Notes under the pieces: generated by a model | Databases searched by the model: none | Seen by the model: only the letters and a program-made list of their open reading frames with translations | What the model was told of the DNA's origin: nothing | DNA from: Candidatus Sumerlaeales bacterium | GTDB lineage: Bacteria; Sumerlaeota; Sumerlaeia; Sumerlaeales; Sumerlaeaceae | Reading direction: 5' to 3' | Assembly (NCBI GenBank): GCA_038243585.1 | Contig: JBBSQY010000012.1 | Coordinates: forward strand, 1 to 64,000 | Length of the DNA stretch: 64,000 nt | Shown: positions 2,468-26,183 of the stretch, piece after piece | How the letters are laid out: each line of letters begins with the position of its first letter | Position numbering within the stretch: the first letter of the stretch is position 1 | Translations under genes and position numbers: made by a program

Positions 2468-2669
2468 TGGGACGCCTGCGAGATTGCCTGGTTGGAGGTT
2501 ATTACATTACGGGTGCGACATGCTCGACCATGTAGTCACGCTTCTTCGGATGGCAGAGAATTGCTTCGCCAGATTTAGGGTGCTGGAGCTGTCCGCAGAA
2601 TCGGCTCAGGTTCAACTTCAAGTTCCTAGCGCGTTTTTGTATCTTAGAATAGTTCCCTAACCTGTTCCT

Positions 2670-3068
2670 TCAATTGCAGTCGTAGTCGCGCTGGTGAAAT
2701 TTTTGCAAGATAGGGGCGTCGGGGTGGCGCTTGTAGCGGGCGGGTTCGGGTTCTTCGGGCAGTTGGACCTGCGCGAGCTGTTCGGGCTGATATAGCTGGG
2801 GCGGATCAGGGTGGTAGGACCGGTCGGACTTGTCGTCGACGTACTCTTCGGCCTAGTCGGCTTCCCAGTTGATCAGGTCCTCGGCTTCGATTTCACCGGT
2901 CCGCCAGTCGGGTCTGACGTCATGCACCCATCCTTTTATCGGGTTGTCTATGATGTCGTTTTCGTCCCAGGCGGCGACGGGGACGTATGGATCGGAAGGA
3001 GCGGGATTTTTTCCCCAGAGCATTTTTGGTCCTGCACTGCTGATATTTTTAGTGTTATCTGTTATCAT
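2670..3068 (-). pseudogene. Acidic, Pro-rich hypothetical protein interrupted by in-frame TAG at 2853-2855
   Basis: AAGGAG SD precedes ATG 3068. After ...LINWEAD* the same frame stays open for 60 more codons (AEEYVDDKSDRSYHPDPPQLYQPEQ...RDYDCN*, TGA at 2670-2672) with similar composition. Confidence 0.55.
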
Positions 3069-3265
3069 TTTTTTACGTCTCCTTAGGAATTATGGGTGCA
3101 GATAAGGAGACTTTGGGGGTGGGAGTATGGGCGCGGAACGACCAAACAATTCCCGAACCCAGTCCATTAATTTAAATTACACAAAGGCAGGAGGAGTAAG
3201 AAATTGTAATTAATTGTATTTACTGAGTTGCTGACGAGGCAGTGTTCCATATATGTACTTAAAAA

Positions 3266-5116
3266 TCACTGACCAATAACCGCATTGCCCAAATAGCTTT
3301 TTATTGTCATGGGTTCGGTAATATTATGCGCACCTGGCGTTGATGGACGATTTCCGCGTAACATAAGAATTGTGCCGCCGCGAGGTCTCATTGATATGTA
3401 TCCGTCATTAAATGTGTTGTATGGATTTATAATACTTCCATTTTCTGGGCCGGTATATGTCGTATCTACATAAATACTGCCTAATGCCTCAATCGCCCGG
3501 CTAAGGTTGACTCTACCAGTTGTTCGATTGGCTTTAGGATCATGAATACCGTCGGCAGTCTGCCTTAGGAGGGGTTCCAGTGTATGAGGCGCTCCGTATC
3601 GTCCGATTCTCACCCGTTCCGCATGTTGCAGGCACGCCGCCGCTCCTGCTACGTATGGGCATGCGGCGGAAGTTCCACCAAAATTGGTAACAAAATTTCC
3701 AGAATTATTTCCACCTGCACCTATCGTATCACATGTATACGCGTTGTTAGAAGAACCCAGCAAAGACAACTTAGGCGAGGAATTGGAATAAGCTGTCACT
3801 TTATCCATAATAGCGTCCTCAAAGAAAGCGCGTCCGCTTCCACAACTCGAAGATACGTGGGAGAGGCAGGATCCGGAATTTACGCACCAACCAAGTGTTC
3901 CTAAATTTGCCTCATATACGGCACCAACCGCCACTACGTTTGCGTTGCAAGCGGGGCTTCCCATAGAATTACAGAATCCATCATTACCTGAAGATGCAAA
4001 AATAGTTATGTTGGCGGCATTACAGGCCGCTGCTATAGCGGTGTAATTACCAGTGTTGCACGTATTAGTATAATTGCCGCCGCCAAAACTAGTACTGATA
4101 ATCATAATCGGGTTATTCGGGTCTTTCTGCTGGTTCCGAAGACACCAATCCCAAGCGGCTTCTATAGTACCGGCGGCGGAAGATTGATTGGGGTCCGAAT
4201 TTTTAGTAAGTTTTAAAGCGTAAATTCGTGCAGCGTGCGCAACCCCACCAATATAATCTCCCACCGAACCTTCAGGCGGAATATCCCCCGCTGCTATTCC
4301 GGCACATGCCGTGCCGTGGTTCGCGGAAGAATGGTCTGGAGGAAGTGGATTAGTGTCTCCATCCCCATAGTCGTACCCGCCAATTACCTTTCCATTAGGG
4401 AATCCGCCGTTTCCAAGGTTTGGGTGGCGGTAGTCGACCCCTGTGTCTACAATTGCTATTGCAAGCCCCGAGCCATTGAACTCAGATCGTGTTTGCCCCG
4501 CCTGAATCAAAGGTATGCCTTGCCTGGTGTGTGGGATGACAATTTCGTCTGGAGAAATTGCCACTACATCAGGATCATTTTGCAAGAGTTGCAGTCCTTC
4601 AAAAGTGACATCAGCCGAAAAGCCAGGCACTGTCGTATATTTATGCTTGACTTTAATGATACCTGATAAGTTTCGGGCCAGCGCTTGTTCAACCTTTGTT
4701 TCATTGGTTTGTACCAATGATTTCACCGAAGCGGGTTCGGTGTACACTGTTGTCAATTGTTTCGATTCAAATGCGAGTCTCACGATTACGGCCGTTACGG
4801 AAGTGCCTTCGCTGAACGGTTCCAGTATTTCGACATCGCTGTAAAGCTTATTGATAGGTGGTGGTGGAATCTCCAAAAAGGCCTTGTTGGCGACTGGAAT
4901 GGAAGTTAAATCAAGCTGGGATGGAAGCATCGGATTTTGTGCAAGTGCAGTGGTGGAATAATCAGCAAGCGAAAGCATTGGAATTTGTGTTAGTGTGGTA
5001 GTGGCCCCGCACACCAGCGGTAGAAGGATAAGCCCAACTGTCAGGAGCGGACGGATTTTTGGGTGTTCGAGAGCCGCTTTGAAGGGATTACTCGCTAAAA
5101 TTTTATATACTGTCAC
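3266..5116 (-). CDS. Secreted subtilisin-like serine protease (S8) with propeptide and a short C-terminal module
   Basis: Catalytic motifs IVDTG, NHGTACAG, ASSGND and GGTSAACP; hydrophobic N-terminus; start codon overlaps the stop of the upstream fibre gene. Confidence 0.93.
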   Translation of the reverse strand: MTVYKILASNPFKAALEHPKIRPLLTVGLILLPLVCGATTTLTQIPMLSLADYSTTALAQNPMLPSQLDLTSIPVANKAFLEIPPPPINKLYSDVEILEPFSEGTSVTAVIVRLAFESKQLTTVYTEPASVKSLVQTNETKVEQALARNLSGIIKVKHKYTTVPGFSADVTFEGLQLLQNDPDVVAISPDEIVIPHTRQGIPLIQAGQTRSEFNGSGLAIAIVDTGVDYRHPNLGNGGFPNGKVIGGYDYGDGDTNPLPPDHSSANHGTACAGIAAGDIPPEGSVGDYIGGVAHAARIYALKLTKNSDPNQSSAAGTIEAAWDWCLRNQQKDPNNPIMIISTSFGGGNYTNTCNTGNYTAIAAACNAANITIFASSGNDGFCNSMGSPACNANVVAVGAVYEANLGTLGWCVNSGSCLSHVSSSCGSGRAFFEDAIMDKVTAYSNSSPKLSLLGSSNNAYTCDTIGAGGNNSGNFVTNFGGTSAACPYVAGAAACLQHAERVRIGRYGAPHTLEPLLRQTADGIHDPKANRTTGRVNLSRAIEALGSIYVDTTYTGPENGSIINPYNTFNDGYISMRPRGGTILMLRGNRPSTPGAHNITEPMTIKSYLGNAVIGQ

Positions 5117-6450
5117 TGTAGGTTCACCAACACTAGGACTAGGCCTGTTCCTTCTTTAAGTTCTGTCATGGCTTTGCCGATGACTGCTCCGTGAGAAATT
5201 TCTGTGTCTGTCGCTTTCATGGCGTGACCGGCAGTGTTGGAGGTGGTAAGTAGATCGCCAGGCGCTATTGATCCATTTTCAGCACTTACCTTTGCGTACA
5301 CCCGTCCGGCCATGGCGATCAGGTTGTTGCCGTCGGCCACGCCGTCTTGAGTGAGCTTAAGGCCCGGCCGTACGCCGCCAGCGCCGCTGATGATGCCGGC
5401 GACTTTGCGGTCGTAGGCGGTGGCGCTGGGTTTTACGTTGCCGGGATTGGCTTCGTCGATCACCATAACCGTTCCTGGTTCGGCGGAGGAGCCGTCGGTC
5501 TGATCGAAGCCCTCGGCGACGTCCGCGCCGCGAACTTCGACTACGGAAGCAGAGAGACTGTGACTAAAATACGCACCACCTAAGGCACGCACATTAAACG
5601 TCCCGACTCCTCTTGAATGGAACTCTACATCATTCTCGGTGTCAACATATCCATTAAAAACGAAGGAGCCGGCATGGTCAGCTTTTGCTTTTCTTCCAGC
5701 AGCAAAGGACGCTATTCCGCCGGCTCGATTAAACGCTCCGCCAGGAATAGTGGCTTGATAGCCATCGGCATTATTATCGGCTCCACCTCCTACAACTCCC
5801 GTAGTATTCGGCCCACTTCCAACATTATTAGAACTGCCACCACCAATTACACCTCGGTTGGTATAAACATGATTATCAACTCCACCCGCTATTACTGCCC
5901 CGAAGATATCTGGAGCAATCTGGTTGCTTGCCGCACCGCCAATAATATTAGGGCCTAATGGGTTACGCTCAATACGCAATCCTCCACTAAGCCCCTCGGC
6001 CATTACCGCCATGGGCACTGCCTGAACCTGCGTGTGGGGCAGTAGAACGTTGTCTTCTACGCCACCGGCGACGGAGAGGTAGACGGACATGCCCGCTGGT
6101 GCGTTGTAATCCGCCGGTTCCAAGGTCTGCCCGGCGGCGGGTGTGCCTGTGCCGACGGCGTGGTTGACTACTCCGTCGGGTGACAGGACAACTTCGGCAG
6201 TTTCGGCGTAGACGATTGTGCCGGGGTCTGTGGGGGTGGTTTTGTGGAGTATCTTGAACCACATGGTTTGGTTGCCGGAAAGCGGCGCGCCGGTAGGGGT
6301 GAAGGCTTTGCCTTGGTAGTTGAAGGTTAAGGGGACGTCGGCAAATGCTGAAGGTGCGCCGAAGATTGTGGCGGCTAGAAGAGCATACATCGCCGGCCTT
6401 GCCATAATACCAGGCGCAAACGGCCTGGCGGAAATCATTAGTTGTGTCAT
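5113..6450 (-). CDS. Secreted fibre/spike-like protein, paralog A (FNYQG N-domain, Gly/Asn repeats, GADVAE-type C-terminal domain)
   Basis: Signal peptide ending AFA; PLTFNYQGKAF N-domain; GGxxN repeats; C-domain GADVAEGF...IAMAGRVYAK...PGDLLTTS...VIGKAM...LVNLQ resembling the peptidase G2 intramolecular chaperone of phage tailspikes. Confidence 0.8.
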   Translation of the reverse strand: MTQLMISARPFAPGIMARPAMYALLAATIFGAPSAFADVPLTFNYQGKAFTPTGAPLSGNQTMWFKILHKTTPTDPGTIVYAETAEVVLSPDGVVNHAVGTGTPAAGQTLEPADYNAPAGMSVYLSVAGGVEDNVLLPHTQVQAVPMAVMAEGLSGGLRIERNPLGPNIIGGAASNQIAPDIFGAVIAGGVDNHVYTNRGVIGGGSSNNVGSGPNTTGVVGGGADNNADGYQATIPGGAFNRAGGIASFAAGRKAKADHAGSFVFNGYVDTENDVEFHSRGVGTFNVRALGGAYFSHSLSASVVEVRGADVAEGFDQTDGSSAEPGTVMVIDEANPGNVKPSATAYDRKVAGIISGAGGVRPGLKLTQDGVADGNNLIAMAGRVYAKVSAENGSIAPGDLLTTSNTAGHAMKATDTEISHGAVIGKAMTELKEGTGLVLVLVNLQ

Positions 6451-7727
6451 TGCAGGTTCACCAGCACCAGGACGAGGCCTGTTCCTTCTTTGAGTTCTGT
6501 CATGGCTTTTCCTAAAATAACGCCGCGTTCCGGGCCGGTGTCGTCGGCGCGCATGGCGTGACCTGCGGTGTTGGATGTGGTGAGGAGATCGCCGGGAGTG
6601 ATCACGCCGTTTTCGGCGCTGGCTTTGGCGTAAACGCGTCCGGCCATGGCGATTAGATTGTTACCGTCGGCCACGCCTTCCTGAGTTAGCTTGAGGCCGG
6701 GTCTCACGCCGCCCGCGCCGCTGATTACGCCGGCGACCTTGCGGTCGTAGGCGATGGCGCTGGGTTTTACGTCGCCGGGATTGGCTTCGTCGATGACCAT
6801 TACAGTGCCGGGTTCGGCGGCGGAGCCGTCGGTCTGATCGAAGCCCTCGGCGACGTCCGCGCCACGGACTTCGATCAGACTGGCAGACAGCTTACCATTT
6901 CCTTGAACAGCAACTTGGCCATTATTAAAAATTTCAAGACCTTGTGTGACATTTCCATTTTCATCTGTTACTGTCCCAAATCGAATACCACCGGGCGCTT
7001 TTACATTAAATGAACCAGCAATCGGTGGCGGTTGGTAATAATCTTGGTTATCACTAATCCAACTGCTCCATACGAAACATCCATTGGCGTTGGGACTACT
7101 TGCGCGAAAACCAGCGGGAAGTGAATGGTTACCTGTCGCATTGTTGTAGGAGCCTCCTGGGACAAACGAAAAATTTCCTGATGCAATGTTTTGATTACCG
7201 CCTAGAGACGCGGAATAAGCGCCGGTTGCCTGATTATTAGTTCCCAATGCGAACTTTTCCCCACCCAAAGTTTTCGCTATAACCGCCATGGGCACTGCCT
7301 GAATCGGCGTATGGGGCAGCAGAACATTTTCTTCTATGCCTCCGGCGACAGAAAGGTGGATGGTTGTTCCTGTGGGGGCGTTAAAATCCGCCGTTTCCAG
7401 TGACTGCCCGGCGGCGGGTGTGCCTGTGCCGACGGCGTGGTTTACTACTCCGTCGGGTGACAGGACAACTTCGGCAGTTTCGGCGTAGACGACTATACCG
7501 ACGTCGGTGGGGGTGGTCTTGTGGATTATCTTGAACCACATAGTTTGGTTTCCAGAAAGCGGTGCGCCGGTTGGGGTAAAGGCTTTGCCCTGGTAGTTAA
7601 AGGTCAGCGGGACTTCGGCAAACGCGGAGGGTGCGCCGAAGATTGTGGCGGCTAGAAGGGCATACATCGCCGGCCTTGCCATAATATTTGGCGTGAACGG
7701 CTTGGCAGAAATCATTAGTTGTTTCAT
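6447..7727 (-). CDS. Secreted fibre/spike-like protein, paralog B
   Basis: Signal peptide, N-domain and C-domain near-identical to paralog A; different central region (ALGTNNQATGAYSASLGGNQNIASG...); ATGA overlap at both ends. Confidence 0.8.
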   Translation of the reverse strand: MKQLMISAKPFTPNIMARPAMYALLAATIFGAPSAFAEVPLTFNYQGKAFTPTGAPLSGNQTMWFKIIHKTTPTDVGIVVYAETAEVVLSPDGVVNHAVGTGTPAAGQSLETADFNAPTGTTIHLSVAGGIEENVLLPHTPIQAVPMAVIAKTLGGEKFALGTNNQATGAYSASLGGNQNIASGNFSFVPGGSYNNATGNHSLPAGFRASSPNANGCFVWSSWISDNQDYYQPPPIAGSFNVKAPGGIRFGTVTDENGNVTQGLEIFNNGQVAVQGNGKLSASLIEVRGADVAEGFDQTDGSAAEPGTVMVIDEANPGDVKPSAIAYDRKVAGVISGAGGVRPGLKLTQEGVADGNNLIAMAGRVYAKASAENGVITPGDLLTTSNTAGHAMRADDTGPERGVILGKAMTELKEGTGLVLVLVNLQ

Positions 7728-9172
7728 TGCAGGTTCACCAGTACCAGGACGAGGCCTGTTCCTTCTTTGAGTTCTGTCATAGCTTTGCCGATAACTGCGC
7801 CGTGGGAAATTTCTTTGTCGGAGGCTTTCATGGCGTGGCCGGGGGTGTCAGCGGTGGTTAAAAGATCGCCTGGGGTGACGGGGCCGTTTTCGGCACTGAC
7901 CTTGGCGTATACCCGGCCGGCCATGGCGATCAGGTTGTTTCCGTCGGCCACGCCGTCTTGAGTGAGCTTGAGGCCCGGCCTTACGCCGCCCGCGCCGCTG
8001 ATGATGCCGGCGACTTTACAATCGTAGGCGGTTGCGCTGGGTTTGACGTCGCCGGGATTTGCTTCGTCTATCACCATAACCGTTCCAGGTTCGGCGGAGG
8101 AGCCGTCGGTCTGGTCGAAGCCCTCGGCGACATCCGCGCCGCGGACTTCTATTGTTTTTGCGGAGAGAAGATCAGATACAAAGACAGGGCCGTCAAATGA
8201 TCCAGCTCTGAAATCCGATCTTGCGTATATACCGACTGCACCATTAGTTCCAATGCCTACCACCCCTGCGTGATTTACAGCACTAGTGTATCCTCCAATT
8301 GCGTCATTGTTAGTGCTTTCGCTACGTATTTCAGGGGATTGTATAGAAGTAGCATAGATAGGCCCATCAAATGCACCAGCTCTTCCAGTATCGGATCTAC
8401 CATAAATTCCCACGCCACCGTTAGTACCTATGCCTGTTATGCCTGAGTGATTTGCAGTTGTACTGTATCCTGCAATTGAATCAGCGACTGGGCTACTTGC
8501 TCTTATTGTGCCCGCTGCCAAGCTATCCAACTTTAGACTGTTGGTTGTAATAGTAGTAGCCAGCACAGCCACGGGTACTGCGTGAATTTGCGTGTGAGGC
8601 AGCAGAACGTTTTCTTCTACACCTCCGGCGACGGAGAGGTGGATGGTTGTGCCTGCTGGGGCGTTATAGTCTGCCACTTCCAGTGTTTGTCCGGCGGCGG
8701 GTGTGCCTGTACCGACGGCGTGGTTGACTATTCCGTCGGGTGACAGGACAACTTCGGCGGTTTCGGCGTAGACGACTGTGCCGGCGTCTGTGGGAGTGGT
8801 TTTGTGGAGTATCTTGAACCACATGGTTTGGTTGCCGGACAGCGGCGCACCGGTGGGGGTGAAGGCTTTTCCCTGATAGTTGAAGGTGAGGGGGACGTCG
8901 GCGCGGACGGCGGTGGGAGCGAGAAGTAAAATGGAGGCGGCTGTTAAGTAATGTGTCGCCTGTATGACAGTGTAGCTCTTGGGAGCGCCGGCATCCCGTC
9001 GGCTTAGGCTCCGCATGACAGCCGCTCTGCTTGCGCCGGAGAGACTTGCGACTGGAATTTCATTCATTTTCGCGGTGTCTGACTGTGCGCCTGGGATTAG
9101 ACCGCCGGGATGCCGGAGCTCCCAGGAAATGCCGCTGGCTTGGGTTTTTGTTGAACTTTTAAATGGTGTCAT
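7724..9172 (-). CDS. Secreted fibre/spike-like protein, paralog C (start codon uncertain)
   Basis: Same N- and C-domains; the centre is two ~52-aa repeats (GIGTNGGVGIYGRSDTGRAGAFDGP / GIGTNGAVGIYARSDFRAGSFDGP). An atypical ~70-aa extension precedes the signal-like segment. Confidence 0.78.
   Translation of the reverse strand: MTPFKSSTKTQASGISWELRHPGGLIPGAQSDTAKMNEIPVASLSGASRAAVMRSLSRRDAGAPKSYTVIQATHYLTAASILLLAPTAVRADVPLTFNYQGKAFTPTGAPLSGNQTMWFKILHKTTPTDAGTVVYAETAEVVLSPDGIVNHAVGTGTPAAGQTLEVADYNAPAGTTIHLSVAGGVEENVLLPHTQIHAVPVAVLATTITTNSLKLDSLAAGTIRASSPVADSIAGYSTTANHSGITGIGTNGGVGIYGRSDTGRAGAFDGPIYATSIQSPEIRSESTNNDAIGGYTSAVNHAGVVGIGTNGAVGIYARSDFRAGSFDGPVFVSDLLSAKTIEVRGADVAEGFDQTDGSSAEPGTVMVIDEANPGDVKPSATAYDCKVAGIISGAGGVRPGLKLTQDGVADGNNLIAMAGRVYAKVSAENGPVTPGDLLTTADTPGHAMKASDKEISHGAVIGKAMTELKEGTGLVLVLVNLQ
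8978..9126. repeat. 25-bp imperfect inverted repeat pair (REP doublet or MITE-like)
   Basis: cttgggagcgccggcatcccgtcgg (8978-9002) versus the reverse complement of 9102-9126, cctgggagctccggcatcccggcgg: 22/25 identical. Confidence 0.8.
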
Positions 9173-9210
9173 TGCAGGTTTACCGGCTCCAAAGCTAGGC
9201 CTGTGCTTTC
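9169..9210 (-). pseudogene. Relic 3' end of a fourth fibre paralog
   Basis: Reads ESTGLALEPVNLQ* versus EGTGLVLVLVNLQ* in paralogs A-C, with the same ctgcaATGA stop/start junction; an in-frame TAA lies immediately upstream. Confidence 0.7.
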
Positions 9211-9267
9211 TTAGGGTTTTGTATTGCGATGATAGCTTGATGTGACATCGGTTGAGTCTTTAATGGG

Positions 9268-9314
9268 AAAGCGGTATCTGAACGGGTAACCCCGTCCTGC
9301 TACCGCACTCCAAA
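9268..9314. repeat. REP-like hairpin, AAGCGGT...ACCGCACTCCA family
   Basis: aaagcggta...taccgcactccaaa; a related copy aaggcggtgatgaatcaccgcactcca lies at about 11966-11992. Confidence 0.55.
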
Positions 9315-9379
9315 TTTGCTGGCTGTGGTTGCCGGGTTGGTTATTGTTATTAAGGCGTTCATTTGTGAATTTATTATGC

Positions 9380-9661
9380 TTAATCAGACGCATAGAGGTG
9401 CCAGAGGCGAGCGGCGGTTGGCTGTGGTGGGAAATATCCGGCATCCCATAGGTATGAGAATCCAAGAGCGGCGGCTGAGCCGTTTGCCGTCTGGGACATT
9501 CCTACGAGGGGCTGGCCCACGGTGGAGAACATGACTACTCCAACGCCCTGGCTGAATCCACCGCCGGAATTGATGGTGTCGGTGGCTGCGCTATAGCCGG
9601 ATCGCGGGAGTACAAGCAGAATGCCCAGGGCTACAAAAGTAAATCCGAATGCTAATCTCAT
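9380..9661 (-). CDS. Small secreted protein with SGGG...TVGQ...GF motif and Trp-containing C-terminal tail
   Basis: Signal peptide; TINSGGGFSQ...STVGQPLVG...LGFSYLW; ends PTAARLWHLYASD; AGGA SD upstream; same strand as, and upstream of, the fibre array. Confidence 0.75.
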   Translation of the reverse strand: MRLAFGFTFVALGILLVLPRSGYSAATDTINSGGGFSQGVGVVMFSTVGQPLVGMSQTANGSAAALGFSYLWDAGYFPPQPTAARLWHLYASD

Positions 9662-9823
9662 GTTTTATTCCTGATGTGGAAAGTAGAAAACAACCGTCAT
9701 TGGTTCGGACAGACGGCCATTCGGAATTCTTCTTAGCGGGATATTTTTTGGTGGCAAGCACTATCTTCAGGATTATAGTGTTTTGGGTTATAACTGGCCA
9801 AAAACGCGAATATCGATCTATGG

Positions 9824-9905
9824 CACCCTTTTAGGATGGGGGTTAAGACCCAAGGGTGTCGCTTCGCTTCCTGACACTTGGATATCTTATATGCCCTTTC
9901 GGGGC
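9824..9905. repeat. Degenerate structured intergenic repeat, copy 1
   Basis: cacccttttaggatggg..ggttaagacccaagggtgtcgcttcgct resembles 12134-12191 caccccttcagggtggg..gggttgagacccagggctgcgtcgctttgct. Confidence 0.55.
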
Positions 9906-10058
9906 GGGGTTTTCTCAGCAATCGTCGCGGAGTTTGTTCGCAATGGTACCGGATTTGGATATTGGGCCAGGTTTCTGGTCTTTCTGGATGCGCTCCAGTC
10001 TGGTCTTCATTTCTTCGAGGAACTTATCATCTCCAGTTGGGTTAACGACAGCTTGCAA

Positions 10059-11057
10059 TCAGCATTTACTCCAGAAGAAATGCACCAGATTGTCAACTTG
10101 ATCCACCCCCAGCTTCTCTGGAAAATAATTAATATAGCCACACAGTGCCGATGGCGTCAGGACTTTCGCATAGGATTTTGCGGGCTTAGGCGGCAGGCTG
10201 CTGCGGGTTGCGATTATGGTGCGAAGTTTTGTTTCCATACCGGCTTCTTTGAGCATCCTGTAGCAGAGGTAAGAGGCGCGGGCTACCTGCTTGTAGGGGT
10301 CATGGAAGTTTCCGGAGTCGGTGAAGTTCCGGCTCCAGAGTTTTACCTCGATGAGGTATACCCCCGGCGGACCAACGACGACGTAGTCAATTTGTGCCGT
10401 CTTTAAATGCTCCCCTTCGTAGTACAGGTAGCGGTTGTATTCCAGTCGCACATCGGCCAGGACGGTGAAGGAATCTGGCAGAGATTCCAAGTGGCGAAGG
10501 ACGTCGATTTCGGCAACAGCGCCGGCGTATTCTTTACTCTCTAAGGCTGCGGTCGCTCCATCTAGTTTTTTGCGGAAAGGTTGGCGGTAGGACTCCACAA
10601 GATGGTGTTGGCTGTTGATATGATTTTGGAGGATCGCTTCTGTATGGAGGGGTAGTTTTTCCAAGTCGATGGCGCGCCGGGCATGCTGCTTTTGCAGATA
10701 GAGGCGGCGCAGTTTCAAGGGTCCCCAGAGGAACCACCTCTGCATCTGGCGGGCTGTGGATATTTTACCTTCTGGACTAAGGCGCTGATCAAGCTCAGCA
10801 ATGTCGTAGGTATGTTTGGTTTGCAGAGCGGCCAGTGCGGTGACATACTCCGCACGCTTCAGCGACACCAGATCTGTCAGTTCCCGCGTGGTGAGATTGA
10901 AGGCGTCCAGAGCGTCGATTTCGCTTTGGTTCCAGTCCTTTTCCAGTTGCGGCACCAGTGCGCGTAAATCATCTGGGGTGTCGGGATATAAGCCTATACA
11001 TTTTAGCGGGGTTTGTATGTCTGTCCAGGCTCCGCTCTTGCCGTATACCTGGGCCAT
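10059..11057 (-). CDS. NERD (nuclease-related domain) protein with helical N-terminus
   Basis: GAVAE...VLADV...QIDYVVVGPPGVYLIEVKLW...DPYKQV matches the NERD PD-(D/E)xK-like pattern. Confidence 0.88.
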   Translation of the reverse strand: MAQVYGKSGAWTDIQTPLKCIGLYPDTPDDLRALVPQLEKDWNQSEIDALDAFNLTTRELTDLVSLKRAEYVTALAALQTKHTYDIAELDQRLSPEGKISTARQMQRWFLWGPLKLRRLYLQKQHARRAIDLEKLPLHTEAILQNHINSQHHLVESYRQPFRKKLDGATAALESKEYAGAVAEIDVLRHLESLPDSFTVLADVRLEYNRYLYYEGEHLKTAQIDYVVVGPPGVYLIEVKLWSRNFTDSGNFHDPYKQVARASYLCYRMLKEAGMETKLRTIIATRSSLPPKPAKSYAKVLTPSALCGYINYFPEKLGVDQVDNLVHFFWSKC

Positions 11058-11115
11058 TTAAATGCTGCCTGTTTTATATAGGAATTTTACGAAGATGATG
11101 AGCCTCAATTGCATG

Positions 11116-11823
11116 TTACAGGCTCAAATCCTTTGGCCACAGGAAGTATGGCCCGAACCTTTTAGAGTAGCGATATTCTCCGCCAGCGGCTTTGCCGGTC
11201 TCTGTGAGGGTGTGTTTGGCGGGTTCTCCTTCGAGAAATCCCTTCGCCAGCAGCTTTTCTATGAGTTCCTGAGTTTTACAACCCAGTTCTTTTGCAAGCC
11301 TGGACGTGGTGAGCTTTTCTGACTCTTCCTCTTCGGCGGCTATCAGGGCTGATTCATCGGGTTCTTTGGTCTTCTCAACAGTCTCGGCAGACAGACGAAT
11401 CTCTTCGCTTACACGGATCAGCCGCTGAGCCTCTTCATAGGTGTCTTTATACAGATCCGGCTCTTTGTCCCGCTCTACGAACACGCCCATTTCGTTGTTA
11501 TTAACCTGGCTGAATTCGTAGAGGTTCATGGAGGTGATAATTGCGGATGATTCGTTGAGGTAGCACTTTGCGTGAAGGTTCTGGCAGAAGCTGGTCCTGA
11601 CAAAATCGAGGGAGCGAAGCCACTTTATCTCCTGGGGTTGCAGTTCGCTTTTGCCGAATACCACGCGGACGTCGATCTTGAGTCGGTTTTTATCCTCGAG
11701 GAGTTCTTTCATGCGGTCGTTGAACTTGAGGAACGGGCTGATGATGATCAACCGGTCTTTTGCGCCTTTGATGAGTTCTTCGAGGAAGTAGTTTGTCGCG
11801 CTGGTATTTAGGAATTTAGCCAT
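11116..11823 (-). CDS. Phospholipase D superfamily (PLD-like nuclease) protein with a probable C-terminal DNA-binding domain
   Basis: LIIISPFL, NLHAKCYLNESSAIITSMNL (HxK motif) and NNEMG; C-terminal LTTSRLAKELG...LTETGKAAGG winged-helix-like segment. Confidence 0.85.
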   Translation of the reverse strand: MAKFLNTSATNYFLEELIKGAKDRLIIISPFLKFNDRMKELLEDKNRLKIDVRVVFGKSELQPQEIKWLRSLDFVRTSFCQNLHAKCYLNESSAIITSMNLYEFSQVNNNEMGVFVERDKEPDLYKDTYEEAQRLIRVSEEIRLSAETVEKTKEPDESALIAAEEEESEKLTTSRLAKELGCKTQELIEKLLAKGFLEGEPAKHTLTETGKAAGGEYRYSKRFGPYFLWPKDLSL

Positions 11824-12133
11824 GGCGACCATGACATACGCCCGCTGTCAAAGGGATCAAGCTTTTTTGTTTGGTAAACGCTAGCGAAGTTAATGGGGAG
11901 ATTGATGATAAAATATGATTTCGGCTGATTCCGGATTTTCGTGGGGTGGTCGCTCCGCTTGGGTTAAGGCGGTGATGAATCACCGCACTCCAGGATGTTG
12001 GTCTTGGTTGTTTGCGGGTATGTGGTAGGTGGTGGGACGGGGGTGGGTTTTGGGACTGGCGGGATTGCCTTTCGTCCTGACGCAGGCGGGGTGCTTATGC
12101 TCCTTATTTAATTTCAGAGCTTAAGTTCTATGC

Positions 12134-22922: not shown

Positions 22923-25900
22923 TTATGGAATGTCGAAATCCTTGTACACCTGATCCTGGTCGGGGACGGTGAATTGCTCCATGCGTAGCCCTGTATTGGC
23001 CAGCTTGTTGATCGTTCCTCCGAAGGTTATCTCATAGGGACCAGGCTCCAGATTGGGGAGAACATAGCTGCCGTTTTTCGGCTGGAAGCTATGGACGCTT
23101 TGGCCAGCTATAGTGTTTCGGGCAATGATTACCAGCGCCTCCGGTTCGCCACTTGTAAAGATTGTGCCTCTCATGGTTACGCTGCCCAGGCGGAAGTATA
23201 GTTCACGAGTTTCCCCGGATGCCAGCAGGATGGTTTGTACGGTGGATTGGGCGGTCACCGTATAGTGGCCCGGCTGGACATTTGAAAACTTAAAACTTCC
23301 GTCGGGTCCGGATTGGCTGGTTAATTCCAGTGTCTGCCCTCTGACATTTGTCCTGGCGGTCACAGGAACGCCGGCCCGGCCCTCCCCTGTCGGGCTGGAT
23401 ACGACGAAGCCGGTGATGGCTGCGGATTCGCTGATCAAGATATCTCCGAGGTCGGAAAAAGCGCCTTCTTCCACCTCTATTTCTTTATCAACCGCGACCA
23501 TGGGCGGCTTCGGCATGGCGGTAATTCGCAGTTTTCCGGAAGGTATGTTCGCAATCAGAAATGTCCCGTCCGCGTCGGTGACGGAGTTGCCGGCCGGGGT
23601 TGTGCTGAATTGAACGGTTTCAAAGGCGGCTATGGGCACGTCGGGCGCCGGCTTTTTGGAATCCGCAAAAAGGACGCGGCCGCTTACGCCGGAAGGCAAT
23701 CCCAGTTCGAAGATCTTTGTCGTTTCCGATCCCGTTTTTGGGGCGACCACCTCAAAAGATTTCGTCGCGTAACCTTCTGCGGAGATTTTCAGATATGTGG
23801 ATTGACCGGGTTCTAAATAGAAGCGGAAGCCGCCCGGCCCTTCGCCGTCCGTGAGTATTTCTCCTGCGCCGGGAGCTTTAAAATCCGTTATAGGCTGTCG
23901 GGTGGTCCCGTCGATCACACGCCCCCTGATGGTCACCTGGGTGTCCATCTTAATCATCAGCTTTTTGTTGCCGGCTTTTACTGTTACCTGCTTCATCAAC
24001 TGGGGATTATGGGAGATGACTATGAGTGTTACGTCCCCCGGAGACAGGCCTCCTATCTTGAAATGGCCGCTCTCGTCTGTCTTCTGGACAGGCAGCCCGG
24101 TGTGTAGAATATTGATATGGGCGGTAACGGGTTTGCCGCCTGCGCCGACCACGTGTCCCTCTACCGTCATATCTTCGCCGAGGCTTATATCCACGCCAGA
24201 TTTCGTTTCTCCCGGAGCCAGATCGACTGTGGCACCGCCGGGGGCATAACCTTTGGCAAAGGCCGTAAAAGTCATCTGCCCCGGAGCCATGCTTTCGAGG
24301 CGGTAGTTGCCATCGCTGTCGGAAGTCCCAAGAGTTCTTCGATCCACAACTGTGCTGAATCCGACTGAGTAATGGTCTGACGTATCAATTTTGGCCCCGC
24401 TGACGGGATCACCGGATGGATTTAGGACTCGGCCTTCCACTGTTGCGCCTTCGTCCAGTATAATTATTATATCGGTCTGATCGTCGCTGGAAACGGGGTA
24501 TTCGATAGACCGCTTGAAAGCATAGCCCGGCGCGGTAACTTCTATCATTCCATTCTGGAAAGGCAGGAGCTCGAAGGTAAAGCGGCCGTCGGCATCGGAG
24601 GTTGTGCGGTTGTAATTGGTAGCGGAAAATTTTATTGAGCCGTTCCACGTGAGGGAGGCACCGGCTACGGGAGCGCCTTCTTTGTTTTGTATGTAGCCGC
24701 TTACTCGCACGACGGCGGTCATTGGCATATCATGCACTAGAGAATCGGAATCCGTAGGAAGATCGACGCCGGAATATGCAGGAACGCCGTTGTGGTAGGA
24801 CGTGCGGGGGTTGGCGGCAATGGTGTAACCCGGTAGTTCTACGGTAATATCCGGGCTGGCATCAGGGGGAATTTTCGAAAAGGAATATCTGCCGGCGGCG
24901 TCGGTGACGGCGAGGTCACTAGCCTGGTCACCGCTGTAGAACTGCACATTTGCGGAGGGCAGCGGTTCGCTGGTGTCTTTGTCTAAGACGGTTCCCGTCA
25001 GGTTATACCCGGAAAAGACGCGGACGGTTATGGCGGTGGTTTCTTTGTCGGTGAGTATGGGAGACAAGGCATCGGACGGTTCGCCGGGTGCGGACCAGAG
25101 GGGGATGCCGCTGTTGGCGGCTTTGACTTCGATGCTTACGGGGCCGGAGGGAAGCTGCTCCAGATTAAAGGAGCCGTCTGCCTCTGTTGTGGCGTGGGCG
25201 GCGGCTTTCCCGGCGGGAAGAACGCTGACTTTGACGCCGGCGGCGGGAGAATCGCCGGGAAACATCAACACGTGGCCGGCGATAGCGGCAGTGCCGCTGG
25301 TGATGCGAAGGTGGACGGGGCCGGTGGTGGGGACGAGAATATTGGTGGCCGTGGAGGGGCAGCCTTTCTGGGAAGGGTAGTCTCTCGCTTCCGCGCCGAT
25401 GGTGGCGATGCCTGCTGGGACGTTCTCTATTATGAAGTCGCCGGACACAGAAACAGTGGTCCGCTGGTTGTCGTAATTCCAGCCGTCGCTAAGGGGGTCT
25501 TCCGAACGCAGGTGGACATTCGCGGTGCTGACGGGATTGTCGTTGAAGTCGGTTACCCGGCCGCGGATAGTATGAAGCGCGGGGATGACAAAATCCTGAG
25601 TCAGGCGGCGGATGCGGGGTTCGGTGGTGGCATCGCTGGCGGAAGCGAGGTCTGCAATGGCGCGGACGGGTCTGCGCAGTTCGACTCGCATGGACCCGCC
25701 GTCGCGGCCGCTGAGAGTATAACGGCCGTTCGCATCTATGGGTGAAACGTCGAGGCGATAACTTTGACTGCTGACAGGCTGGAGAGGATCGCCGTTTCGC
25801 CATAGCTCAATGGTGGCGGTAGTGTCGGGAGCGCCATTTTCGAATCTAACAGTCCCGGTTACTATTAAGGTGGGTTCTGTGATTTTGCGATTATCCGGAC

Positions 25901-26183
25901 GGGTGCGGTGGGCAGAGGACGCTGAATCATTTTGCGATGATCCACGATTTTTCTGTGCGCCACGAGCGCTGGTATTTTCCCTGGACTCTAACGTGGTGAT
26001 TTTCGCGGCGGCGGGAGTTTCGGAGGCGATTGACACGTTGCGCGCTGGCGAATTGGTGGTAGCACCGTCATCGCAGCCGGGACATAGCAGGGCGACCATT
26101 ACGGCTATGGTAACGCAGGCGATGCGACCGCTGCGAAACATTTGAGTTACTGCGTAGAGCGAGGGGCTGGGGTGAAATGTCAT
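22923..26183 (-). CDS. Large exported protein of tandem carboxypeptidase-regulatory-like (Ig/transthyretin-like) domains
   Basis: About ten repeats of I.G.V....G.P...A.V...TD..G.F.....P.G; signal or lipoprotein-like N-terminus (LLCPGC). Confidence 0.85.
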   Translation of the reverse strand: MTFHPSPSLYAVTQMFRSGRIACVTIAVMVALLCPGCDDGATTNSPARNVSIASETPAAAKITTLESRENTSARGAQKNRGSSQNDSASSAHRTRPDNRKITEPTLIVTGTVRFENGAPDTTATIELWRNGDPLQPVSSQSYRLDVSPIDANGRYTLSGRDGGSMRVELRRPVRAIADLASASDATTEPRIRRLTQDFVIPALHTIRGRVTDFNDNPVSTANVHLRSEDPLSDGWNYDNQRTTVSVSGDFIIENVPAGIATIGAEARDYPSQKGCPSTATNILVPTTGPVHLRITSGTAAIAGHVLMFPGDSPAAGVKVSVLPAGKAAAHATTEADGSFNLEQLPSGPVSIEVKAANSGIPLWSAPGEPSDALSPILTDKETTAITVRVFSGYNLTGTVLDKDTSEPLPSANVQFYSGDQASDLAVTDAAGRYSFSKIPPDASPDITVELPGYTIAANPRTSYHNGVPAYSGVDLPTDSDSLVHDMPMTAVVRVSGYIQNKEGAPVAGASLTWNGSIKFSATNYNRTTSDADGRFTFELLPFQNGMIEVTAPGYAFKRSIEYPVSSDDQTDIIIILDEGATVEGRVLNPSGDPVSGAKIDTSDHYSVGFSTVVDRRTLGTSDSDGNYRLESMAPGQMTFTAFAKGYAPGGATVDLAPGETKSGVDISLGEDMTVEGHVVGAGGKPVTAHINILHTGLPVQKTDESGHFKIGGLSPGDVTLIVISHNPQLMKQVTVKAGNKKLMIKMDTQVTIRGRVIDGTTRQPITDFKAPGAGEILTDGEGPGGFRFYLEPGQSTYLKISAEGYATKSFEVVAPKTGSETTKIFELGLPSGVSGRVLFADSKKPAPDVPIAAFETVQFSTTPAGNSVTDADGTFLIANIPSGKLRITAMPKPPMVAVDKEIEVEEGAFSDLGDILISESAAITGFVVSSPTGEGRAGVPVTARTNVRGQTLELTSQSGPDGSFKFSNVQPGHYTVTAQSTVQTILLASGETRELYFRLGSVTMRGTIFTSGEPEALVIIARNTIAGQSVHSFQPKNGSYVLPNLEPGPYEITFGGTINKLANTGLRMEQFTVPDQDQVYKDFDIP

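Follow-up and report, generated by a model that had tools for sequence, protein, structure and literature searches.

A candidate phylum-spanning cassette of self-trimming surface fibres and tagged hydrolases in a Candidatus Sumerlaeales bacterium

Why does a bacterial chromosome carry, in one compact cluster, the genes for a small exported protein, for three proteins that resemble the fibres of phages and of Bdellovibrio, and for a secreted protease? This question is raised by five genes on the minus strand of a 64,000-nucleotide stretch of DNA from a Candidatus Sumerlaeales bacterium (contig JBBSQY010000012.1 of assembly GCA_038243585.1, positions 1 to 64,000), which is referred to as the window throughout this text. 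Our sequence comparisons and structural models suggest, with a confidence somewhat above an even chance, that the locus belongs to a widespread three-part cassette in which a self-trimming surface fibre recruits tagged hydrolases, and that the fibre gene was triplicated in the window. A more far-reaching proposal, according to which the cassette is a phylum-spanning modular enzyme display with a trimer of the C-terminal fibre domain as docking hub for any tagged enzyme and with the N-terminal fibre domain and the small protein as anchor, is tentative and rather doubtful at present.

The five open reading frames (ORFs) are co-oriented head to tail at positions 9661-9380, 9172-7724, 7727-6447, 6450-5113, and 5116-3266, and genes 2 to 5 overlap pairwise by 4 nt (7724-7727, 6447-6450, 5113-5116). 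The first ORF encodes a small exported protein of 93 aa (P0001), which was defined by its translation, by alignment and by a profile match (E 1.5e-10). It consists of a strongly hydrophobic leader followed by INSGGGFSQG...STVGQPLVG...GFSYLW and is present as a single copy in the genome. The next three ORFs encode the fibre paralogues P0002 (482-aa ORF with a probable start at M53, position 9016), P0003 (426 aa), and P0004 (445 aa). Translation and alignment of these proteins revealed a mosaic of hydrophobic leader, constant N module, variable centre, and constant C module. The N module starts with VPLTFNYQG, shares 85-88% amino acid identity between the three paralogues and is located at about 8561-8896 (P0002), 7278-7613 (P0003), and 6001-6336 (P0004). 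The C module runs from EVRGADVAEG to LVLVNLQ, is 85-93% identical and occupies positions 7727-8149, 6450-6872, and 5116-5538, respectively. In contrast, the centres (135-154 aa) are not alignable with one another, and their GC content (0.45-0.49) differs from that of the constant modules (0.57-0.63). The last ORF begins with a GTG start codon and encodes a secreted S8 subtilase of 616 aa with an I9-like propeptide (P0005). This protein matched PF00082 (E 1.6e-32, model positions 1-286 of 288) and PF05922 (E 3e-4), and its Asp/His/Ser triad is intact (DTGVD at 224, HGT at 267, GTSAA at 481). Coordinates, translations and alignment agree with a preliminary description of this DNA, which had reported five co-oriented genes, the last four overlapping, with leader/constant/variable/constant paralogues and an S8 protease. 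When the five proteins were compared with Pfam, NCBIfam and PHROGs, names were obtained for the subtilase and, below threshold, for a MAT N-domain alone, and no PHROG structural family matched any of them.

The C module (C-domain) was modelled with AlphaFold2 on 100 homologues and a predicted local distance difference test score (pLDDT) of 90.5 was reached. The best structural match of this model was the C-terminal fragment of phi29 gp12 (3gqh_A) with a Z-score of 14.1, a root mean square deviation of 2.2 A over 111 residues and 22% identity, and model residues 22-155 were aligned to residues 692-854 of the chain. For the uncleaved gp12 spike (3suc), a Z-score of 14.0 was obtained (Foldseek E 7.4e-4, TMq 0.66). 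After gp12, the next structural matches were trimeric phage decoration proteins (Z 8-12), and 81 viral models of the BFVD, including pre-neck appendage and tail-fibre proteins, matched the C-domain at E <= 0.001. Model residue 22, which corresponds to D291 of P0003, superposes on gp12 residue 692, with which the deposited fragment begins. When the family profile was compared by hhalign with the C-terminal part of gp12 from the phi29 record, GG-aDLaE-Fe was aligned with GGNTWSDFAEYFE (GGNTWS-DFAEYFE in gp12) at E 1.7e-4 and a probability of 49%. Each of the 74 family members retains G289, D291, and E294, and we take the aligned Asp and Glu to be the catalytic residues of Peptidase G2. The model and the alignment support the assignment of the C-domain to the phi29 gp12/peptidase G2 autochaperone fold with an aligned D-x-A-E-x-F motif, and the autochaperone type proposed in the preliminary description is supported as far as fold (Foldseek, structural match) and motif are concerned. 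Fold, motif alignment and conservation suggest that the fibres cleave themselves between A290 and D291 (P0003 numbering; D291 codon at 6855-6857). No Pfam, NCBIfam or PHROG model names the C-domain, its sole Pfam match at E <= 10 was the XM1 minor capsid family PF23982 (E 0.015), and no Pfam S74 match was detected in the paralogues at E <= 1. Domain D4 of gp12 is described as a trimerizing autochaperone absent from the mature spike (PMC13317679, PMC4690869), and D4 of the marine podovirus tailspike Dpo31 begins at an Asp, trimerizes alone and is likewise missing from the mature spike (PMC13317679).

The N module (N-domain) points to a different relative. Model NF053851 (Bdello_MAT_N) matched all three paralogues with E-values between 1.2e-7 and 2.4e-6 (4.7e-7 for P0002, 2.4e-6 for P0004) and with 27.5-31.7 bits compared with a curated cut-off of 60, and at E <= 1e-3 it matched 24 of the 74 family members. 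The family profile also matched the MAT fibre structures 8OND (E 5.8e-8), 8OJN (0.0045), and 8OL4 (0.017), and these matches were located in the stalk repeats of relatives. Judged from these scores, the N-domain is a remote relative of the MAT-fibre N-domain and lies below the curated membership threshold. For the centres of the window proteins, we found weak UspA1-head-like repeats (E 0.012) and a YadA_head match (E 0.15), with repeats of this kind in the centre of P0003.

Caulton et al. (2024, PMC10769870) describe the MAT (mosaic adhesive trimer) fibres of Bdellovibrio bacteriovorus as trimeric adhesins that are exported and in which the signal peptide is followed by a conserved N-domain of ~130 aa; this N-domain is thought to bind an unidentified surface element. 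The MAT fibres bind the prey of Bdellovibrio and end in S74 chaperones or in adhesive tips (beta-sandwich, TNF-like, C-type lectin). Both groups of proteins appear to follow a common plan of signal peptide, beta-rich N-domain, variable fibre, and C-terminal folding or tip domain, and both occur as several chromosomal paralogues with a constant N end that are not phage-borne. In contrast, the C-terminus of the window proteins is of the gp12/G2-type and corresponds neither to S74 nor to any of these three tips, the proteins are short (about 390 aa mature vs. about 1000), and they are constant at both ends and variable in the centre. On the basis of these sequence comparisons, the window fibres are MAT-like fibres, which carry a gp12/G2-type instead of an S74-type chaperone. 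In same-class relatives, the N-domain was also found at the head of Kelch propeller, right-handed beta-helix, and TIG proteins (loci L120, L121, L124, L130, L136 in genomes G008, G009, G029, G033). This distribution argues for an independent display module, and the MAT-like N-domain looks like a general surface-display module in this phylum.

How widely is this combination of domains distributed? A homologue search yielded 3582 homologues among 8000 scored candidates. The C-domain was located at the very C-terminus in 120 of the 122 proteins kept from this search, and 94 of the 120 C-domain proteins among the matches listed also carried the N-domain, which started at residues 2-97. At an identity of 49-62%, relatives of the C-domain were detected in at least 603 species genomes (one genome per species), and these belong to Phycisphaerae and other Planctomycetota, Verrucomicrobiota, Chloroflexota, Bacteroidota, Acidobacteriota, Ignavibacteria, Eisenbacteria, and others. 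Several relatives carry collagen repeats (PF01391), and Engelhardtia mirabilis, Saltatorellus ferox, and Flavilitoribacter nigricans are cultured carriers. When the C-domain was compared by tblastn with 50,697 phage records, no matches were obtained. Among 2.9 million viral contigs (IMG/VR), 13 C-domain loci with 30-44% identity were found and the N-domain was present in none of them. Several of the viral contigs (L013-L019) carry two to three consecutive short ORFs (297-309, 233, 439 aa), each of which ends in a gp12-like domain. In the window, a Pfam scan identified chromosomal genes on both flanks (NERD, PLD, ArsR, rhodanese, phytochrome-GGDEF, MutS, S1), and in the flanks examined neither Pfam nor PHROG matches for phage structural, packaging or integration genes were found. 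As far as sequence data can tell, the gene set is not phage-borne and is not unique to the window, and the earlier view of a cellular system is in line with the chromosomal flanks, with 0 of 50,697 phage records and with 13 IMG/VR loci vs. at least 603 species genomes.

The gene neighbourhood was compared in a sample of 77 loci, which were the best-scoring genome loci of the at least 603 and had been chosen by their C-domain; ORFs were called and local profiles for four modules were applied. Here, we found that the products encoded downstream of the fibre genes share a module of ~65 aa at their extreme C-terminus, which blastp recovered between different enzyme classes (E 1e-5 to 1e-16). In P0005 this C-terminal tag ('PCT' module, ~70 aa, residues about 545-616) is encoded at positions 3269-3484 and was defined by between-class blastp, by alignment and by an own-genome profile match (E 3.9e-20). 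A tag-bearing ORF was present in 65 of the 77 loci, an ORF with the motif of the small protein in 42 and both of them in 38. A downstream flank of 1.5 kb or more was available for 73 fibre genes, and in 57 of these cases the tagged ORF started between -100 and +300 bp from the fibre stop; the median spacing was 15 bp and the two ORFs overlapped in 11 of 59 cases. This immediate downstream placement spans at least six phyla while the enzyme class changes. Peptidases accounted for 51 of the 82 tagged ORFs scanned and represented 11 families, namely S1 (7), S8 (8), S53 (4), C1 (1), C10 (3), M4 (1), M6 (1), M10 (3), M12A astacin (7), M12B reprolysin-like (14), and M43 (2). Another 14 are not proteases (eight sortilin/BNR propellers, two Kelch, one NHL, one EEP nuclease-like, one beta-helix, and one protein with a type IX secretion system, T9SS, domain only), and for 17 no family match was obtained. 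Some loci hold two or three different tagged enzymes. The shared tag, the small motif and the gene order in the 77 loci indicate that the locus probably represents one member of a conserved cassette, here with a triplicated fibre gene.

All three parts appear to be exported. A crude test, which scores an N-terminal hydrophobic segment, was positive in 78 of 83 cases for the tagged ORFs, in 55 of 59 for the fibres, and in 41 of 45 for the small ORFs, compared with 224 of 484 for other ORFs. The tag itself resembles the start of DUF1565 beta-helix proteins (E 7e-5). Giant proteins of 2000-7700 aa (P0243-P0392) carry it up to 13 times, which argues for an autonomous repeat domain and not merely for a beta-helix cap. 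Two loci illustrate how the parts can be combined. In the metagenome-assembled genome (MAG) of Akkermansia muciniphila, a human-gut commensal lineage, contig CALQSQ010000002.1 (L105) carries the full cassette with a 655-aa fibre, a small protein of 146 aa, and two tagged ORFs, one of which is M12-like. In Verrucomicrobia bacterium ADurb.Bin006 (L094), four fibre genes alternate with two near-identical small genes and one tagged S8 gene, and the gp12-like C-domain is present in only one of these four fibres.

The small protein was traced with an iterated profile, which found 46 small-motif ORFs where the word-based search had failed; the motif is present in 42 of the 77 loci. The consensus of the motif reads Y-x-[IL]-x-W-x-T-I-D-G-G-G-G-x-S-x-G-G-x-Y-x-L-x-G-T-I-G-Q-P-D-A-G...G-G-x-Y-x-L-x-G-G-F-W. 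The small proteins end in lineage-specific sorting or anchor parts. A T9SS sorting domain scored above the cut-off in 6 of 41 proteins and a GC-type dockerin in 3 of 41 (with 3 more below), and a YLP-box was detected in 1 of 41 (Chloroflexota). Verrucomicrobial small proteins carry an end domain that closes with NRFYRLFKP, and when one of them was used to search the ESM Atlas, clusters of 'hypothetical proteins' alone were returned. In addition, leader and motif weakly resemble the PamT profile in 9 of 41 proteins (loci L052, L058, L062, L077, L079, L083, L085, L091, and L106), with 17-23 bits vs. a cut-off of 240. PamT has been proposed as tip pilin of the Pam pilus, which was newly described in the candidate phyla radiation (CPR). 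We consider this sequence resemblance a lead only. A tail-fibre-like gene is conserved beside the pam operon (PMC13278184).

Which part of the fibre goes with which partner? A small protein was encoded in the locus of 40 of 61 fibres with N-domain vs. 1 of 12 fibres without it, and a small gene was also found beside N-only fibres in two relatives. The co-occurrence of the small protein with the fibre genes, which had been anticipated in the preliminary description, was seen in 42 of 77 loci. A competing assignment of the small protein to the C-domain instead of the N-domain had been derived from 14 N-only loci of relatives, which have no small protein nearby; it was dropped in view of the small genes beside N-only fibres and of the 40 of 61 vs. 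1 of 12 contrast. In one same-class relative (L146, G029:C36, positions 4971-12049), the order is fibre, small protein, fibre, fibre, which resembles the arrangement in the window; these fibres lack the gp12-like C-domain, no tagged enzyme follows, and the next ORF has a cytidylyltransferase domain. The tagged enzyme was kept by 6 of 10 C-domain fibres without N-domain vs. 0 of the 14 N-only loci of relatives. From these sequence data, we follow as leads that the tag goes with the C-domain and, on mixed evidence, that the small protein goes with the N-domain. A docking of the N-domain on the small protein, as suggested in the preliminary description, would be hypothetical, and it is not favoured by the 14 N-only loci or by two genomes of relatives from which the small motif is missing. 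Since related genomes are not independent and the loci were picked by their C-domain, these contrasts between modules are to be read as leads and not as statistics.

A possible contact between fibre and enzyme was modelled with three copies of the C-domain and one tag. This prediction reached a score of 0.59, compared with 0.02 for the best of three controls, and the verdict was 'weak support'. In the calibration of this score, 116 of 157 solved complexes came up to the mark, compared with 2 of 215 mismatched pairs; at 0.60 or under, 18 of the 157 solved complexes reached the mark, as did both passing mismatches. The runs agreed in at least 88% of contacts and the pLDDT of the partner was at least 71. 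The three C-domain copies folded together at a pLDDT of about 90, and scoring was limited to the partner chain.

From these observations, the following sequence of events can be proposed. All parts would be exported by Sec. After export the C-domains would trimerize and nucleate folding of the beta-structured stalk, and they would then cut themselves off between A290 and D291. The tagged subtilase might be recruited by the C-domain trimer or by the tip left behind, and the N-domain end would stay attached to the cell surface, with the small protein as a possible link. With its different centre, each of the three paralogues may have a binding specificity of its own. As net effect, the protease would remain near the producing cell and on the target of the fibre, be it protein particles, matrix or other cells. 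Our confidence falls in this order, from Sec export via trimerization and cleavage, tag recruitment, and surface retention to the three specificities. If the docking-hub proposal is correct, the small protein would also become a candidate for the surface element, as yet unidentified, by which fibres of the Bdellovibrio type are held.

Several observations weigh against the proposed cassette and its mechanism. Pfam PF11962 (Peptidase_G2) did not match the isolated C-domain at E <= 10, and gp12 as control gave 2.7e-98; moreover, the hhalign probability for the motif alignment with gp12 was just 49%. The chaperone release of phi29 gp12 is said to need ATP, which is unavailable outside the cell. 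The ATP site is mentioned in PMC13317679. For the enzyme partner, 12 of the 77 loci lack a tagged ORF within the sequence examined, and the complex prediction was classed as weak and came without a reported interface. The tag profile finds 29,578 cluster representatives, the best of which are giant proteins with up to 13 copies, and because the tag is this generic, its presence alone is no proof of dedicated docking. Similarly, no small ORF was found within the sequence examined in 35 of the 77 loci, and in two relatives' genomes with four to five N-domain proteins the small motif is absent altogether. P0001 is a divergent copy of the phylum-spanning motif, which was recognized by the iterated profile (E 1.5e-10), and a word-based homologue search with P0001 returned no relatives of 51-163 aa. 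When the small motif was modelled alone with AlphaFold2, the pLDDT was 44.3 and no usable fold was obtained.

These points have to be considered together with four other explanations. The main rival is a maturation reaction, in which the tag would bring the protease to the C-domain to cut this domain, or the leader-proximal end, off the fibre in a procollagen-like manner. Astacin-family proteinases remove the trimerizing C-propeptide of animal procollagen, and 7 of the 51 peptidases among the 82 tagged partners are astacins. The collagen repeats (PF01391) of several relatives, the translational coupling of the genes and the weakly predicted placement of the tag on the C-domain (0.59 vs. 0.02) also fit such a reaction. 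However, 11 unrelated peptidase families are unlikely to share a single specific processing task, 14 of the 82 partners are not proteases, some loci encode two or three different tagged enzymes, and the fibres retain the invariant D..E self-cleavage motif. Because the partner class varies and the fibres keep their own cleavage motif, the protease is unlikely to be a dedicated maturase. The preliminary description had considered fibre maturation as the first of two options for it, and we do not favour this role since its equivalents are 11 peptidase families or non-proteases that are united by the C-terminal tag; maturation as a whole is left with a small chance. It is about as improbable that no complex is formed at all, so that the fibres would be self-sufficient adhesins of the MAT kind, protease and small protein would merely be co-regulated, and the tag would be a generic folding or export module. 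Many of the 29,578 tag representatives are multi-copy giants unrelated to fibres, the tag resembles the start of DUF1565 proteins, the complex score is weak, and 12 loci lack a tagged ORF, all of which is compatible with this explanation. Nevertheless, the immediate downstream placement, which was seen in 57 of 73 cases and in at least six phyla with changing enzyme class, is hard to explain in this way and favours a functional link between fibre and tagged enzyme. Moreover, the C-domain is unusually conserved (49-62% identity across phyla vs. 30-44% in viral copies).

The carriers mostly belong to lineages known as polymer degraders, and this counts against a role of the cassette in antagonism or predation, in which the fibres would recognize other cells and the tagged hydrolases would be delivered effectors, as in Bdellovibrio. 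In the ORF maps no immunity-like gene recurs in the cassette, an Akkermansia MAG is among the carriers, and no sign of a cell target was obtained in this analysis. On the other hand, the fibres are remotely homologous to the prey-binding MAT fibres (PMC10769870), the tandem paralogues have variable centres, and the payloads are exchangeable as in polymorphic effector systems. With these arguments on either side, an antagonistic function appears quite unlikely to us. Finally, the cluster might be the remnant of a prophage tail-fibre module without cellular function. The C-domain has a typical phage-appendage fold, relatives occur on 13 IMG/VR contigs, the locus is absent in two same-genus genomes and has a match in only 2 of 12 same-family genomes, and the GC content of the S8 gene is low (0.476 vs. 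0.544). However, there are no phage genes near the cluster, leaders are present on all parts, the ORFs are intact and overlapping, none of the 50,697 phage records was matched by tblastn, the N-domain is missing from the viral copies, and the cellular family is far larger. A prophage remnant is, in our judgement, very improbable. The cassette of self-trimming fibres that recruit tagged hydrolases remains the explanation we prefer.

When this cassette is compared with known systems, the likeness is partial in each case. With D4 of phi29 gp12 (PF11962; 3GQH, 3SUC), the C-domain shares the fold, the extreme C-terminal position on a beta-structured fibre and the D-x-A-E-x-F motif at the start of the released fragment. 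In contrast, the window domain is ~20% identical to D4, cellular, apparently Sec-exported, joined to a MAT-like N-domain and accompanied by tagged hydrolases, and window-type C-domains are conserved between phyla far beyond the need of a discarded chaperone. Dpo31 D4 is also a gp12-like domain but, as far as PMC13317679 indicates, Dpo31 is a structural protein of a phage, brings along a depolymerase body of its own and has no separate tagged enzyme. The fibres are related to the Bdellovibrio MAT fibres, and to this extent the earlier statement that no characterized system was known with this organization has to be qualified. Neither a tagged hydrolase nor a small partner is mentioned in the accessible text of PMC10769870, and its searchable supplementary text, which leaves Supplementary Tables 3 and 4 (other strains) uncovered, contains no mention of phi29, peptidase G2 or Verrucomicrobia. 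No published description was found of such fibres combined with tagged hydrolases and with a small protein that has alternative anchors, in a search that did not extend to most of the subscription literature.

In cellulosomes, the same small C-terminal module is found on enzymes of different families, whose genes lie next to that of a surface-anchored partner without catalytic activity. The cassette might work like this cohesin-dockerin display, since it too combines varied enzymes, which carry a small C-terminal module, with a non-catalytic partner that would be anchored at the surface. There is, however, no sequence relation between the two systems, and the proposed docking partner in the cassette is a trimeric phage-type domain, for which binding is weakly predicted.

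The distribution of the cluster in close relatives is patchy. In the 3.43-Mb genome (89.7% complete), every copy of the N module, the C module and the small protein is located at this locus. In the two same-genus genomes, which are 81% and 95% complete, no fibre cluster was detected, and only 2 of 12 same-family genomes gave any match, in both cases with the N module alone. For the ribosomal protein S1 of the window, named relatives belong to Sumerlaeota (candidate division BRC1) with 53-59% identity, and closer ones share 72-80%. The absence in the same-genus genomes and the low GC content of the subtilase gene (0.476 vs. 0.544 for the window) suggest that this lineage acquired the cluster recently. 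Directly upstream of the cluster (10059-11832, minus strand), a NERD nuclease-related gene and a PLD-like nuclease gene with an IF2_N-like piece are located. Together with the patchy distribution, these neighbours raise the possibility that cluster and NERD/PLD genes form a small defence or mobile island.

Additional features of the window were also noted. A sigma-70-like promoter-like site (TTGGCC, 18 nt, TATAAT; minus strand, 9772-9801) lies ~110 nt upstream of the small-protein gene; it was found by a consensus scan with 10 of 12 matches and is a pattern match alone. An Rfam search at E <= 1 over positions 2500-11500 gave no matches and hence no detectable c-di-GMP riboswitch. At positions 1-1000 the GC content is 0.647 (window mean 0.544) and long ORFs are present on both strands (3-962 plus, 3-980 minus); the plus-strand ORF 48-962, the only one of these ORFs scanned, had no Pfam match. 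Positions 22923-26183 (minus strand) encode a 1086-aa protein with eight CarboxypepD_reg repeats, which is probably another large surface protein.

If the proposed function is correct, thousands of 'hypothetical proteins' in Planctomycetota, Verrucomicrobiota, Chloroflexota, Bacteroidota, and Acidobacteriota would gain a reading as phage-derived surface fibres with a self-removing trimerization domain, which are paired with exchangeable tagged hydrolases. The carrier phyla are environmentally and medically relevant, and the Akkermansia MAG is among the carriers. The tag would then be a new small docking module, which may be useful in protein engineering, and the small protein might offer a clue to the attachment of MAT-type fibres to the cell, a question that was not settled by the work on Bdellovibrio (PMC10769870). 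For the bacteria that carry the cassette, it would provide a testable mechanism by which costly exoenzymes are kept on a chosen target.

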